Below are positions 10,932 through 16,900 of a DNA stretch of 64,000 bases, piece after piece. The notes beneath the pieces were generated by a model. The model was not told where the DNA came from. It did not search any database and worked only from the letters and a program-made list of their open reading frames with translations. Positions within the stretch are counted from its first letter, which is position 1. Each line of letters begins with the position of its first letter. The position numbers and the translations under genes are program-made. Source of the DNA: Raillietiella orientalis (lineage: Eukaryota); contig JAYWIR010000033.1 in the NCBI GenBank assembly GCA_036172245.1, forward strand, positions 1,426,001 through 1,490,000, in the 5' to 3' direction.

Positions 10932-13900
10932 GTAAGACGATGTCATATTTAGCGTAATCAAATATTGCAAATCAGCCTCTCTCTCTCTCTCTCTCTCTCT
11001 CTCTCTCTCTCTCTCTCTCTCTCTCTCTCTTCAACAGTCATTTTGACTATTTTGTTAACGTTTTCACGTCACACAAAAAAGCTGTTTCATAGCAATAACT
11101 TACTGTGAATTGTTCAGCAGTTCCACGTCTATGTCCGTGAATCATAGCTTAACCATAATCTGAGCAGACTTCACAAAAAATGCATCTGTTGAAATTTCCG
11201 ATCTTACCACTGGGGAATCGAATTGCGTAATGCGAAATTGCACGTGTCTTCTTCGGAACTCCCTTTCATTGAATGAGGAACTTTGTAATGATGCAGAATT
11301 AACGAAATCAAGGCTTCAAAGCATTTTACAGATTTTGAACGAATGCACACGGTCGAAAAAGGGAAAACTTGAAACAAAAAAGGACCACTGATGATTCGTA
11401 TGATTGGAAAGATAAAATAAAGACAAACACAAGTAGAAGATATTGATGTGAAATCTGCAAAGTGATGATAGAGACGAAAACTTTTTTCACACTGTCATAA
11501 ACCTTTTGTTTGCCTTTGTTGTTTTTTTTGTGTGTGTTTTAATAATTCTATCAGATTAATTGCAAACTAGAAAAAAAAGGTTAGGTAAAGAGGGGGGTGT
11601 TTTCTAAGAAGGGCATATGATGGTAAGATGAGAAGAAATGATAAATTGACATGGTTATAACTACCATGAAGGCTATGAAAAGTTGTAAGTACCATGAATG
11701 GCTTCTGTGATTGGAAGGAGAAATCTAGTCCAAGTTGAACGAAGTCGAACGGAATGGCGAAATGAGTCCCCATAATGTTGTTGTGGCTAACATGGTTCCA
11801 GCATCAAGCGGTCCCGGGGGATGCAAGAAGGAGGGTCCCGGGGCAGACAGTGAGTCGCAATGATGGCACTGGCAGTAAACAGTGAGGTCTGCAAGTCAAA
11901 ATGCATTTGCTGCATAGGCAGATAGTCTGAAGTTTGCAAGAGTGCTGCACTAATGATGACGGTGTGTGCTCACAAGGAAAAGATGCTGTTTCTCAGTTCA
12001 GTGAATCCATCGCAGTTGCATAGACTTGAGCTCCTAGTTTTTCGACTGGCCAAATATCCAAAACTGCGCGTGTATTCTTTTTGTTTCATCCAAATTTTGC
12101 ATTTTCGTGTGAAATCCATCCCATTTGTTATGAGTCAAGAAAAGTAGATTCAGAAATTCGATTTTCCATTTCCTACAAACGTGGATATATGGGGCTACAA
12201 CGAAAACCACTCGTGATGGCTTCTTAGTAGTTTTTCTTCTCAAACTTGTGTTGAAGAGTGACCTTTTCGCTCAGTAAATCGTGGTTCCATTCCGTTCAGT
12301 GCTCTTTTCAAACACTCTGGCGCTTCCCGTCCACTTACAACATCTCTGTGAATGACGGCCCCCAGGCGATTCACGTCCATGTCCTGCAGCAGCTTTTCGG
12401 GATGCTTGACGGGGCTGGACTGGGTGCCCAGGTTTTCCACGATGTTCCAGTGCTTCTGAAACTCCTGCCCGAGGTGCAATGGTGATTCAAACGGGGAAAC
12501 CGAAGCAGTTGCATTACCCTTTAGGAAGGTGTGTTCCTGTGGCGGTAGGGAAGAAACAGCTGATCTTCCGGTCTTTCGTGGAGTTCCGGTTTCCTTCCTG
12601 TCGAAAACTAGGCTTCGCTTCTTTGCCCGTCTGTCACGCGAGTTTCTGGAGGTTCCTTTCGGTTGACGAAATTTGTGTTCTCGCGCTCTCCATTTTTGTT
12701 CTTGTTCTGGTTTGTTTCTTCAAGAAGCAACTCGGGTTTCGTTCCCGTTGCTGGACGGAATTGCGGACCTCCCAGCGGATCCACACAGCTTTGCCTGTCT
12801 GACGATTAGATTAGAATTTGTCCCGCACATTCGAACGAGAGATCAGTGTGCCCTTCTATGGTAGGAAGTTGTACAGGGTTCCAGAATGAAAAGGGAAATC
12901 CCACTTTATGATCTCGAAATCACCTTTCTGTCATTTCTTATTGGGGCATTCCGTTCGCTAGGTACTCTGAAACGTAATTTTCTTTTCCTTGAAAGGAGGG
13001 ATTTTAAGGGTTCTTCCTAAATTTTGTTTCCTGAATTTTTTTTGTTTTTTTGCTTCGTGTTCGCTAAGCATCTGATAGACTTTGTTGTTTTCTCGTTTTG
13101 TTTGGTTTCTTTGTGGTGCTTCATGTGTGCTAATCGGTTGGATTCGTTTCGATCCTTATTTACCTTTGAATTTTGTGCCTGATTATGACAGCGCTGAAAT
13201 GGCGTTGGTACCTGTGTTTTCTGCCACGTTGTGTTTTCATCTCTGTGTTTGTAAAGTTTGCAAGGTTTTCCATCTCTGCTCTCTCGGGTACACACATTGC
13301 CATCGGTAGTTCAAACTCACCAGCGCAGGTGTGTTTTTCTTCTGCTGTATGGACTTTTGAAACAGCACGGGAGCTGGTACACCAATCGGGTCGCTGTTGG
13401 GTCATCACTATGGCGAATTCCTTACTTGCAGTTGGTGCAACTGTTCGTGAACTGGATTTGTTTGCAGTTGTGCGCCATTTTTTCCCTTCTTCCTCTTCTT
13501 TTCTTTGAGTTTACCTGTTGGCTGTCTGTTTGCTCGTGTTCTGTTACTTCTGTTACACGTGCACTTCATCCGCTTCCCTCCTTCATGTTCTTGGTTATGA
13601 TATCGCTGATGTTTTTGCCATCAATCTCGTGGATACACGCACACACCGTTACATCAGGAAAACCGCTTTGGTACATTCATTAGATGCCGAAATCTTGAAT
13701 GCATGCTGCGAATCAGATCAGCGGAGCAGGCGAGAGTACCTACAAAATAGCAGAAGTAGGCATAAAAACCGAAACTTCTAAAATGCCTTGTTCCCACCTC
13801 CTGCATCCATTGAGAAACTTGGGGACTGAAATACCATAATTTTGTGTGCAATCTTGGCCGGTTTTCGTGGGTCTTGGACAAATCGGATGAATGAGCAGCT

Positions 13901-16900
13901 AGGGATGAAACTAATTACCGGAAACCTGGATTTGACGCAAGAGGCGAAAATCGTGAATGTGCGATTGAAGTGGGATTATGAATTCGTGATGAGAGTAGGT
14001 AGGTAGATGGGGATGCTGCAGTGATTTCCGAAACTCAGCAGTTAGCTTATTCGGCGGAAGGATTTGATTCACGCGAAACGATTTTTGGTATTTTTTCTCG
14101 ACTTGTTTTTGCACGTAAACAGTGTTCCCTGGGTGCATTTATTTTGCTCGTTTGATGCGTTGCTATCGGCATCCTCCCTTCGTGCTGCCATTGACATTCC
14201 ATCGCGCCAAAAAGCTTCCCGTTGATGCAGTGGAGTCTGATGGAGGTTAGATGGACTTGATTCATCCTGGTTACGTGCAGTCGGCTGAAGTCGCGATCGT
14301 ATGCTTATTTATTTCGTTGGAGTGTGGTATTCCAATCACCTTTGGCATTAAAATAGGGGGTGGATTAGTTGGCCGTAGCAGATACTCGTCGTGCGCGTGA
14401 TGGGACGGCAAGAGCTGCCGTGGTTCAAATCCCCTGCTGTTCCCTGCACTTTTCATCAGGACTCATTCGATTATGGATCCCTTGCATGTTCTATCATCCG
14501 TTCTTGTTTCCGTATGTACTCGTGTCAAGAGCACGCTGTCATGTTTCGAACTTACCGGTTCCGTATCCGCTGCGACCTCATTTTGTGAATAATCAGCATG
14601 TCTGTGGTTTCACGTTTGTCCATTGCAGCTTTGTGTTTTAGACGAAAGCAGCAAAAGTGCGGTGTCCGGCGAATCGAAAAATAAACCCCCGCAGCCCGCC
14701 CAGCAAATTTTCAGCCCACCCCCTTCGAAGCCTCCTTTTCGAATATCGGAGTTCCGCTGGTCTCCCGTCCACCAGAAGATGCTTTCGGACTTGCTCTTTT
14801 CCATCGAGACGGACGTGCAAGTTTGGAGAAGGTAACTGTTCGCAGTTCGGGTCTCAGGTTTCCGTGCTCGCCTCGATCTGGACAATCCTCCCCGGCTGTT
14901 CCCCGTCGTCGGAAAACAAGAGCCCCGCGATCTTCCTTTCTCGTAGCCGATTCCGGGAGCCAGCGGTTGCTTGCGGAACGAGGGGAATCCGCCGGGTTTC
15001 GGGATCCTTACCTAACGCCTCTGCTCGAGATCTGCTCGAAGCTGTAGGTGGTGGTTATGATGGGAATAATCGAGGAGCTTGCGCACTTCGAAACTGATGG
15101 GAAGGCGCGCGAGCTTTCGAGCGCCGTTGTGCACATCGAGCACGGAGTGAATTGTGTTGAACGCTTTGCTTTTCATCTTATTCATTCGATGCTTCGAAAT
15201 TTTTTCCTCTCCAGTCACTCGAGCAAAACCGTTCTGGATTTCGTGAACAACACGGAAAACGCCGTGTTCGTAATGAACGCCGTTCACGTCATTTCCCAGC
15301 TGGCCGACAACCTGATCATTTCCTGCGGAGGTCTTCTGCCCTTGCTGGCATCCGCCACCTCGCCCAGCGTAAGGAAGAAGCGAGATTGCCGCGTTTGGAA
15401 CGTTTTCCCCACTCGTTTTGCACTTCAGTACGAATTGGACGTCGTGGAGCCCACCCAAGGCTTGTCCGTTGAGGTGGCCATTTCTTTCGTCCAGCGCTTG
15501 GTCAACCTGGTCGATATACTGGTGTTCGCTTCATCCCTCAACTTTGCCGAGCTGGAAGCCGAAAAGCACATGTCCAGCGGTGGGATCTTGCGCCAGTGCC
15601 TGCGTTTGGTACCGCCGTGTGCTGCTCACACGCGAGTTCCCTGGTCCCTTGCGTTTTTCAGGTTTGCATGGTGGCGGTGCGTAACTGCATCGAATGCCGG
15701 GAGCGATGTCGGCCCTACTGCTCTCTCCAGAGTGGTGCGAAGGACTCGGAACTTTCCAGCAACAAGAAGAGCCACCTCCTCTCCCTGATCAAGGGCGTGC
15801 AGGCTTCGCCTCAGGTACCTCTCTCCCCCCCTCCCCTTCTCCTTGGAAAACCGGCTCGGGAGGCGGATCATCGCTCACGTTCCCAGAACATCGTGGAAAA
15901 CCTGGGCACCCAGTCCAGCCCCATCAAGCATCCCGAAAAGCTGCTGCAGGACATGGACGTGAATCGACTGAGGGCCGTCATTTACAGAGATGTTGTAAGT
16001 GGCCGGGAAGCATCCGCGTTTTTTTTTTTGCCTTTCCGGTTTTCCACGGCGTCATTAGGAGGAAGAGAAACAGGCTCAGTTTCTTTCCTTAGCTGTAGTG
16101 TACTTCATCTCGGTTCTTATGGTCTCCAAATACCGCGACATCTTAGAGCCTACCGATCTGCCGTCCACGTTGTCTTCCAGCGGAAACACCGTGCTACCCT
16201 CCGGTAAATGCGGTTGCTGTTGTTTTTCTTCTATCGATGTGTTCCCTGTGCTCGTCCTTTCCTCGATCGTAGACCTGGGCTTTCTGTCTGCATGGTTGTT
16301 GGGTGTTGCCGGTGCATGCGAGGTCAGGAGTTTTGTGCGTTGTTCGGCTGTCTTCCACCCTCACCTTGCTGCTCTTCTGCTTGGCTCGTTTTGGTTCACC
16401 CTCGTGGTCCTTGCGCATGCGGCTTTGCTCGCCTCCCCCCTTTCGTCATGCAGCGGCATGTCTCCCTTCCCCTTCCTGCCCCGATCTTCCTCTTCATCTG
16501 TTGCGCGCACCTTCTTCATCTGTCTCTGACACCTTCGTTTCTTTTCACGCCACTTACCAGGCTCAGTGAGGAAACGAAACTGGAGTCGAGTATCTAGTGG
16601 TAGGGCTGGAGGGCGGGTGAGCTGACCACGTGCCTAACGTTGCTTTTTTTTTTTTTTTTTTTTGTGTGTGTATGGCAGATGCGGACAATCCTCACCAGCC
16701 GGATCAGGGCAAGAGGCTCGAAGAGAAGCCGGAAAGAGGTTCCGTTTACGCGCAGGCAGGACGCGGGAGCAACCCCCCCTGCCTCTCGACGCGAAAAAAA
16801 TTTCCGTCTTCCCAGGATTCGAACAGCATCCCCAAGTTCTCCCTGGAAAACGGCTGGACCGAAGTGAACCTGGACGAGGGCAAGTCGATGGACATGGATT

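Follow-up and report, generated by a model that had tools for sequence, protein, structure and literature searches.

An antisense copy of a conserved neurobeachin exon lies 3.4 kb upstream of its source in Raillietiella orientalis: probably a young inverted duplication with hairpin potential

Why should a gene carry, upstream of one of its most conserved exons, a near-perfect copy of that exon in antisense orientation? The question was raised by an earlier note on 64,000 nt of Raillietiella orientalis DNA (contig JAYWIR010000033.1, positions 1,426,001 to 1,490,000; this entire 64-kb stretch is called the window below), which proposed that the two copies form a hairpin for RNA editing or splicing. 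Judged by sequence homology, the gene that hosts both arms is neurobeachin on the + strand, as had been claimed. The DUF4704 alpha-solenoid region (PF15787, E 1.6e-28) was detected at 8806-9045, and P0046, P0055, P0062, and P0063 map colinearly by tblastn to the + strand between about 1100 and 40056. These colinear matches include, in proteins named as neurobeachin or LRBA, the DUF1088, PH-BEACH, BEACH, and WD40 parts, the families PF06469, PF14844, PF02138, and PF00400 being precomputed domains of the matched proteins.

The duplicated exon (15887-15994, + strand) comprises 108 nt, i.e., 36 codons in phase 0/0, is flanked by CAG and by the 5' splice site GTAAGT (15995-16000, +), and encodes N-I-V-E-N-L ... 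R-A-V-I-Y-R-D-V, which is among the most conserved stretches of the region. Of 20 related loci whose match spans the full exon, 18 have AG and GT at identical edges, and by this comparison the exon is ancient. Between the two arms lies a loop of 3438 nt (12448-15885), for which the earlier note had assumed four exons, while protein homology supports three, at 14642-14831, 15215-15608, and 15662-15814 (all +); a fourth, non-conserved exon may be located in 12448-14641. The last of the three directly precedes the duplicated exon and is separated from it by an intron of 72 nt (15815-15886). Downstream, an intron of 64 nt leads to the next exon (16059-16151, +), which starts with E-E-E-K-Q-A-Q-F-L and was placed by homology, its 3' edge being provisional. 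The antisense copy itself is housed in an interval devoid of homology-supported + strand exons (10103-14641, +, 5' edge provisional), presumably for the most part one long intron ending at the acceptor 14641/14642, though ORFs at 10219-10957 may encode a non-conserved acidic linker. No Pfam family was detected in the intron ORFs at E < 0.08, and no Rfam family matched in 10000-20000.

Comparison of the window with itself via blastn revealed the repeat as its top match and as a unique pair (E 7.6e-53): 12322-12447 and 15886-16011 are reverse complements of one another without gaps, sharing 96.0% identity over 126 nt, with five substitutions and no indels. This agrees with the previously described pair of 12322-12446 and 15887-16011, likewise ungapped and with exactly five mismatches, and adds one base, since the final G of the acceptor (15886) also pairs with 12447. 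Besides this acceptor base, the source segment or downstream arm (15886-16011, +) holds the entire exon, the donor GTAAGT, and another 11 bases of intron. In the predicted hairpin, the upstream arm (12322-12447, - strand), supported by the repeat and by tblastn matches, is an antisense pseudo-exon with the exon, its donor, and those 11 intron bases in inverted order; its - strand aligns with those residues of neurobeachins from insects and ticks that the exon matches as well. Its borders are sharp, with 96% identity within and random similarity beyond; past the edge there is a weak tail to 12310/16023 (7/12 bases matching), and gapped local alignment of the 1-kb flanks revealed no further homology. 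Further copies of the exon were not found in the 64-kb window. The five differences (intron arm/exon arm) are T12330/C16003, which is intronic, G12350/T15983, a G-U wobble, C12362/A15971 and C12410/A15923, both A:C, and G12366/A15967. On the - strand of the copy, V, G, and H replace I, R, and Y of the exon. At four of the five differences the copy has the higher G+C, for which mutational bias or some other cause could equally be responsible.

A first explanation is that the copy at 12.3 kb is an assembly artefact and absent from the real chromosome. The copy does sit where the G+C content climbs from 31% to about 60%; this rise, however, takes place gradually across 10-18 kb, gene and homologues remain colinear throughout, and the sequence on either side of the copy is unique. 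Moreover, an artefactual duplicate is expected to be identical, yet 5 of the 126 positions differ, and since all five are substitutions, real divergence fits better than read or assembly error. We therefore regard an artefact as highly improbable.

For comparison, we used 61 related neurobeachin loci holding the exon, all of them distant (exon nucleotide identity about 70-86%) and many on contigs of 1-6 kb. None of these 61 loci revealed an antisense copy at the protein level, and the best inverted nucleotide matches in them, 8-20 nt long with a mean of 20.7 bits, were no stronger than those of the direct-strand control (mean 21.9 bits). At the R/G site, Arg is found in 10/10 homologous proteins holding the exon and in 57/61 related loci, the other four, which are the most divergent ones, having Gln. 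Tyr, replaced by His in the copy, is present in 10/10 proteins and 61/61 loci, while the I/V position is V in nine and I in one of the 10 proteins. As the copy has Gly and His against Arg and Tyr in the homologues, at least two of the four exonic differences arose in the copy and are non-conservative. On these substitutions, the copy is free of coding constraint, as expected of a pseudo-exon. Altogether, the copy probably stems from a small inverted duplication that is young and lineage-specific, and it is more likely neutral or mildly deleterious than a device under selection. A recent neutral duplication had been offered in the earlier note only as an alternative and turns out to be the better-supported reading, given the 0/61 loci with a copy and the Gly and His within it; its other alternative, a copy of an already edited transcript, accounts for only two of the five differences.

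How could such a duplication have arisen? A piece of 126 nt, spanning the conserved exon of 108 nt with its 5' splice site and a short run of intron, would have been copied in reverse 3.4 kb upstream into the long non-conserved interval of the same neurobeachin gene. As the likeliest origin we infer that replication or break repair inserted the copy in one templated step, by a template switch onto the nearby opposite strand, after which the copy would have drifted free of coding constraint. A single template switch is documented to give rise to reverse-complement repeats and to hairpin stems that pair perfectly (PMC8794818; further literature on such mutations in PMC5453318 and PMC10710096). 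The copy resembles these mutations in being a sharp-bordered reverse complement of nearby sequence on the same molecule, as left by a single event that yields a perfect inverted copy with mismatches following later. The reported events, in contrast, are local and measure tens of bases, while the 126 nt of this copy are separated by 3.4 kb from their source and begin at the edge of an exon; the largest pattern in PMC8794818 is 59 bp, and its two-step compensatory-mutation criterion is a source-target gap of <=8 bp. That the copy is longer and less local than these events counts against a template switch.

One end of the copy falls on the first base of the exon, for which P is about 0.034 for a random 126-nt segment. 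A template switch at the DNA level leaves this coincidence unexplained, so that it is a point against a young duplication of this kind. It would be accounted for by an RNA-mediated origin, in which an RNA fragment beginning at the first base of the exon (plus one ambiguous base) and keeping the downstream intron was captured as cDNA at a break in the upstream intron. We consider this quite unlikely, as upstream-exon sequence, expected had the upstream intron been spliced, is absent, an apparent extension to 12515 against P0063 has no real similarity, there is no poly(A), and the flanking direct-repeat similarity around the copy is not significant (P 0.05-0.06). To our knowledge, there is also no RNA species with such a 5' end. 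A processed retrocopy was ruled out by the 17 nt of intron that the copy retains and by the lack of both an A-run and upstream-exon sequence. Exon capture by a transposable element found no support either, the surrounding ORFs giving chance-level matches only and no Pfam domain of transposon type, and the window holding no further copy.

Irrespective of its origin, the inverted duplication would place both arms in one pre-mRNA, where folding predicts a duplex that encloses the three exons and buries the donor. For the two arms, a duplex of 122 bp with only four unpaired positions was predicted at -253.9 kcal/mol, compared to -65.0 +/- 6.0 for 100 shuffles, and the 122 in-register pairs persist in the minimum free energy (MFE) structure of the 3.8-kb pre-mRNA segment 12250-16080. 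In this predicted fold, all six bases of GTAAGT (15995-16000) pair with 12333-12338, and the final base of the acceptor is paired too. Thus, both the proposed pairing of about 125 bp and the position of the donor within it hold in the folding model, by which the hairpin potential of the locus is real. If the duplex formed in vivo, indiscriminate A-to-I editing of the exon might follow, the exon of 36 codons might be skipped in some transcripts or its intron retained, and small RNAs would be possible.

Known editing-complementary sequences (ECSs) form duplexes that are short, imperfect, and conserved among species, and ADARs favour A:C mismatches while deaminating long, near-perfect duplexes promiscuously. 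One functional reading builds on the editing proposed in the earlier note, in that the intronic arm would have been retained for recruiting ADAR, with recoding of the exon at the two A:C mismatches (15923 and 15971). The recodings given in that note are correct, namely ATC from I to V at 15923 and AGG from R to G at 15971. An exon-intron duplex within one pre-mRNA of a neuronal gene, as predicted here, has the complementarity of an ECS, the predicted duplex contains both A:C mismatches, and the I/V position is variable among homologues. However, two or more A:C pairs among five mismatches are within chance (P 0.07-0.24), and A15971 is adjoined by a disfavoured 5' G. The exon arm contains 31 A, of which 27 would recode, so that a near-perfect duplex of this length predicts promiscuous rather than selective editing, lacking the imperfection that gives selectivity; precise I-to-V and R-to-G recoding would not be the expected outcome. 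Furthermore, the Arg at the R/G site is nearly invariant, the inverted partner is missing from all 61 distant loci, and among the papers listed by full-text literature searches, no title or abstract dealt with editing of neurobeachin/rugose. While the predicted pairing of the arms stands, recoding at two selected sites is weakened, and an arm kept for ADAR is in our view very unlikely. Nevertheless, a neuronal gene, a target of exon plus donor, and an intronic partner make up the classic geometry of an ADAR substrate, which leaves room for a function. Documented ECSs include the intronic sequences that pair with GluR-B at its Q/R and R/G sites (PMC1920255) and, in Gabra-3, an intronic element some distance away (PMC3479170). 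The present locus is like them in that intronic sequence could pair with an exon of the same neuronal pre-mRNA and the duplex spans an exon-intron junction, and unlike known ECSs in being a near-perfect copy of 122 bp located 3.4 kb upstream and absent from the 61 related loci; it is a candidate ECS only.

Alternatively, the hairpin might regulate splicing, either by masking the donor of the 108-nt exon, leading to in-frame skipping or to retention of intron 15995-16058, or by bringing 14642 and 15814 together for back-splicing of the three looped exons into a circRNA. Inverted repeats can drive back-splicing. In the predicted fold, donor and last acceptor base are paired, and the exon is indeed a multiple of three in phase 0/0, as had been noted, so that skipping would stay in frame. 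Long-range RNA structures have been reported to modulate splicing in Drosophila (PMC2724269), and the locus shares with them the kilobase-range pairing within one pre-mRNA that could conceal a splice site or place exons in a loop. The elements behind such splicing structures and behind back-splicing are conserved intronic boxes or paired intronic repeats, whereas one arm here is an exon with its donor, and no conservation was seen in the 61 distant loci. Since the exon is so highly conserved, its skipping would probably be harmful, and, for back-splicing, what would serve as the downstream arm is exonic and not part of an intron that flanks the circle. We thus consider a splicing or circRNA regulator unlikely.

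Inverted copies of their targets gave rise to Drosophila hairpin-RNA (hpRNA) loci, and plant miRNA genes are born by inverted duplication of targets. By analogy, the duplex could be diced into siRNAs, or the excised intron could bear 125 nt of antisense to the mature mRNA, either of which would dampen neurobeachin. Though the geometry is as expected, with sequence of the target itself duplicated in inverted order, such self-targeting is extremely improbable, as a 122-bp stem with an exon-holding loop of 3.4 kb is unlike known hpRNA loci, and we know of no reason to silence a conserved, housekeeping-type neuronal gene. In common with hpRNA loci (PMC10317233, PMC10292708) and plant miRNA genes, the locus offers potential dsRNA against the target gene; here, in contrast to them, both arms lie inside the target's primary transcript and one arm is a functional exon, the small RNAs being hypothetical.

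At present, the antisense exon copy is a real structural curiosity, with function a candidate only. It is improbable that we see the birth of an exon-targeting hairpin, in which one templated insertion created the 122-bp duplex over the donor and this is already used, or mutationally trimmed towards use, as an ECS with I/V and R/G recoding, a switch for in-frame skipping of 36 residues, or a source of self-directed small RNAs. If true, it would be a single example of how intronic editing-complementary sequences originate; the origins of intronic partners of edited exons and of new regulatory hairpins in pre-mRNAs are poorly documented. In any case, the locus would be a natural experiment on whether a 122-bp duplex with a 3.4-kb loop forms in vivo, whether it is hyper-edited, and whether the splicing of a conserved exon is disturbed. 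If merely neutral, the copy means that small inverted duplications occur in this lineage and that a conserved neuronal gene tolerates one. A second inverted pair was identified in another intron of the neurobeachin gene (21466-21600 and 22964-23098); it is non-coding, 75.8% identical across a blastn core of 124 nt, and older than the exon copy, which suggests that such events recur here.

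Base-by-base comparison bore out the claim of the earlier note that the gene carries an antisense copy of one of its own exons, as positions 12322–12446 are the ungapped reverse complement of 15887–16011 differing at five positions and lacking indels. One further base matches (12447 against 15886), which brings the total to 126 nt with 96.0% identity, and a weak tail with 7 of 12 identical bases reaches 12310 and 16023; a repeat search delimited arms of 138 nt (93% identity) at a spacing of 3438 nt. Since this pair was the top self-match in a blastn comparison of the whole window against itself (E 7.6e-53), occurred only once, and showed no homology past the arms in gapped local alignments of the 1-kb flanks, the inverted repeat is real and far beyond chance. 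An assembly artefact, by which the copy at 12.3 kb would be spurious, is unlikely, given that the two arms differ at five positions and are embedded in unique sequence. Copied along with the entire exon were its donor GTAAGT (15995–16000) and 11 further intron bases. On one side, arm homology breaks off right at the exon's first base, with one ambiguous base added (12447/15886–15887), and on the other it reaches 17 nt into the intron.

Homology assigns the plus-strand gene to neurobeachin, the identity proposed earlier: DUF4704 was detected in an upstream ORF (Pfam, E 1.6e-28), and long insect and tick neurobeachin/LRBA proteins were colinear with the window from about 1100 to 40056 in tblastn. 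Exons supported by homology and bordered by canonical AG/GT were located on the plus strand at 14642–14831, 15215–15608, and 15662–15814, followed by the duplicated exon at 15887–15994, equally supported and bordered, and by a next exon from 16059 onward with a canonical AG. Three of the introns among these exons measure 53–72 nt, and the one at 14832–15214 measures 383 nt. The loop between the arms (12448–15885), for which four exons had been claimed, contains three according to protein homology. No homology-supported exon was found at 10103–14641 around the upstream arm, and this interval is presumably for the most part one long intron. The duplicated exon itself, 108 nt long and with phase-0 junctions on either side, codes for one of the most highly conserved parts of the region. 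Within this one colinear gene, the G+C content rises from about 31% (1–8000) to 53–58% (14000–20000) and 60–67% farther on; the climb is gradual across about 10–18 kb, and the antisense copy has 57.6% G+C in a zone of 45%. A (CT)27 microsatellite is located at 10977–11030 in the host interval of the copy, and a similar CT run (17457–17505) directly precedes the acceptor of an exon starting near 17516.

The closest protein relatives, with about 61–76% identity, came, where named, from insects, ticks, spiders, a copepod, and other crustaceans, which places the lineage no more finely than as an arthropod-like animal. When a 126-aa portion of a homologous neurobeachin/LRBA protein (P0062) was used to scan metagenome contigs, 80 related loci were obtained, 61 of which contained the homologous exon, once each and on the strand of the gene. 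Among the 20 loci with a full-length match, 18 have AG and GT at the same exon edges, which marks the exon as an old unit. In the remaining two (L010, 107–214, and L003, 1336–1443), the exon lacks the upstream AG and appears to be fused to the preceding exon by intron loss. An antisense copy was found in none of the 61 loci at E <0.01, and the best inverted nucleotide matches of the exon against its own locus covered 8–20 nt with a mean of 20.7 bits, compared with a mean of 21.9 bits for the direct-strand control. These loci are distant (about 70–86% nucleotide identity in conserved exons), and many of them are short. Because no antisense copy and no inverted match above the control occurred in any of these 61 loci, the comparison, which spans distant relatives, indicates that neurobeachin genes do not carry such a copy as an ancient feature.

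Relative to the exon in sense orientation, the copy shows A to G at 15923 (I to V), A to C at 15967 (synonymous), A to G at 15971 (R to G), T to C at 15983 (Y to H), and C to A at 16003 in the intron. Codon reading agrees with the recodings given earlier for 15923 and 15971. Ten of 120 fetched proteins held the exon, and all ten have Arg and Tyr at the sites of 15971 and 15983, respectively, while the residue at 15923 is Val in nine and Ile in one. In the related loci, Tyr was found in 61/61 and Arg in 57/61, with Gln in the four most divergent. Given this conservation, the copy's Gly and His represent derived, non-conservative changes. The copy can be read as a pseudo-exon drifting without coding constraint, with the real exon intact. 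The proposal that it was copied from an edited transcript was rejected, since only two of the five differences are A to G in sense orientation, the rest being T to C, A to C, and C to A. Enrichment of A:C among the mismatches was not significant either, with P 0.07–0.24 for at least two A:C among five under random substitutions on the intronic arm, the range depending on the transition bias.

The simplest origin of the copy would be a DNA-level templated inverted insertion, because neither a transposon domain, an RNA family, poly(A), nor a spliced exon was detected and flank similarity was marginal. In particular, 17 ORF translations searched against Pfam yielded no transposon protein domain in the host interval; the genuine DUF4704 exon scored, and the remaining matches were at chance level (Mga, E 0.016; HSD_C, E 0.08). 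Rfam gave no match in 10000–20000 at E up to 1, and both poly(A) and a spliced upstream exon are absent from the copy. The 40-nt flanks of the copy share 20–23 nt of gapped similarity, but this fell short of significance with P 0.049 relative to shuffles and 0.061 relative to 457 real intron positions, so that a target-site duplication was dismissed. Also dismissed was the apparent extension to 12515 of the minus-strand match with P0063, another neurobeachin/LRBA protein, since beyond the exon edge the two sequences do not truly resemble each other on the upstream side. An open frame of 159 codons (12240–12719, minus strand), spanning the copy plus 91 codons upstream, had no Pfam match and was interpreted as an ORF that is open by chance in DNA of high G+C content and in part derives from the exon. 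Template switching is documented to generate both reverse-complement repeats and perfect stems by a single event, though at shorter range (PMC8794818). The coincidence of one copy end with the exon edge (P about 0.034 by chance) is unexplained under DNA-level duplication. The neurobeachin gene contains a second inverted pair in its 13.6-kb intron between 18319 and 31951. The arms of this pair, at 21466–21600 and 22964–23098, are each about 135 nt long and 1.36 kb apart; they align with gaps and share a 124-nt blastn core of 75.8% identity. The pair is non-coding and predates the exon copy, which hints that inverted-duplication events recur in the neurobeachin gene here.

The duplex between the two arms, as postulated in the earlier note, was predicted by folding with 122 in-register pairs and –253.9 kcal/mol, compared with –65.0 ± 6.0 kcal/mol for 100 shuffles and about –40 kcal/mol for each arm folded alone. 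When the 3831-nt segment 12250–16080 was folded to minimum energy, 122/122 of these pairs were kept, and the predicted hairpin is thermodynamically compelling. Masking of the donor, also proposed before, is reproduced in this fold, where 15995–16000 and the last acceptor base would be paired. During transcription, the upstream arm emerges first and can be excised only once 14642 has been transcribed; the exon arm comes some 1.25 kb after that. Since the upstream arm is not excisable until then and the exon arm is only this far away, it is plausible that both arms coexist in a fraction of nascent transcripts.

ADARs deaminate long near-perfect duplexes promiscuously, and their selectivity arises from short, interrupted helices. 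The exon contains 31 adenosines, 27 of which recode if read as G. As these 31 would lie in a long near-perfect duplex, promiscuous ADAR access would be expected to cause scattered damage to a conserved segment rather than two tidy recodings. The idea of specific recoding at 15923 and 15971 is disfavoured, with an A:C count within chance, 27 of 31 adenosines that would recode, and a G as 5' neighbour of A15971, a disfavoured ADAR context. Literature searches by title and abstract returned none on neurobeachin editing, though supplementary editing-site tables might list sites in the gene; a search on A-to-I recoding of rugose in Drosophila showed no "rugose" among the matches listed. Predicted donor masking could lead to in-frame skipping or intron retention. 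Altogether, the structure and its predicted hairpin potential are real, and roles in editing, splicing, circRNA, or siRNA are candidate functions only. With moderate confidence, we regard the copy as an inverted duplication of recent, lineage-specific origin, with neutral or slightly harmful effect.

Further repeats were identified downstream of the neurobeachin gene, namely a direct repeat of 0.5 kb (40683–41188 and 60022–60507; 67% identity, 19 kb apart) and an internally repeated cluster at 43289–43920 with units of about 120–320 nt and 66–81% identity.
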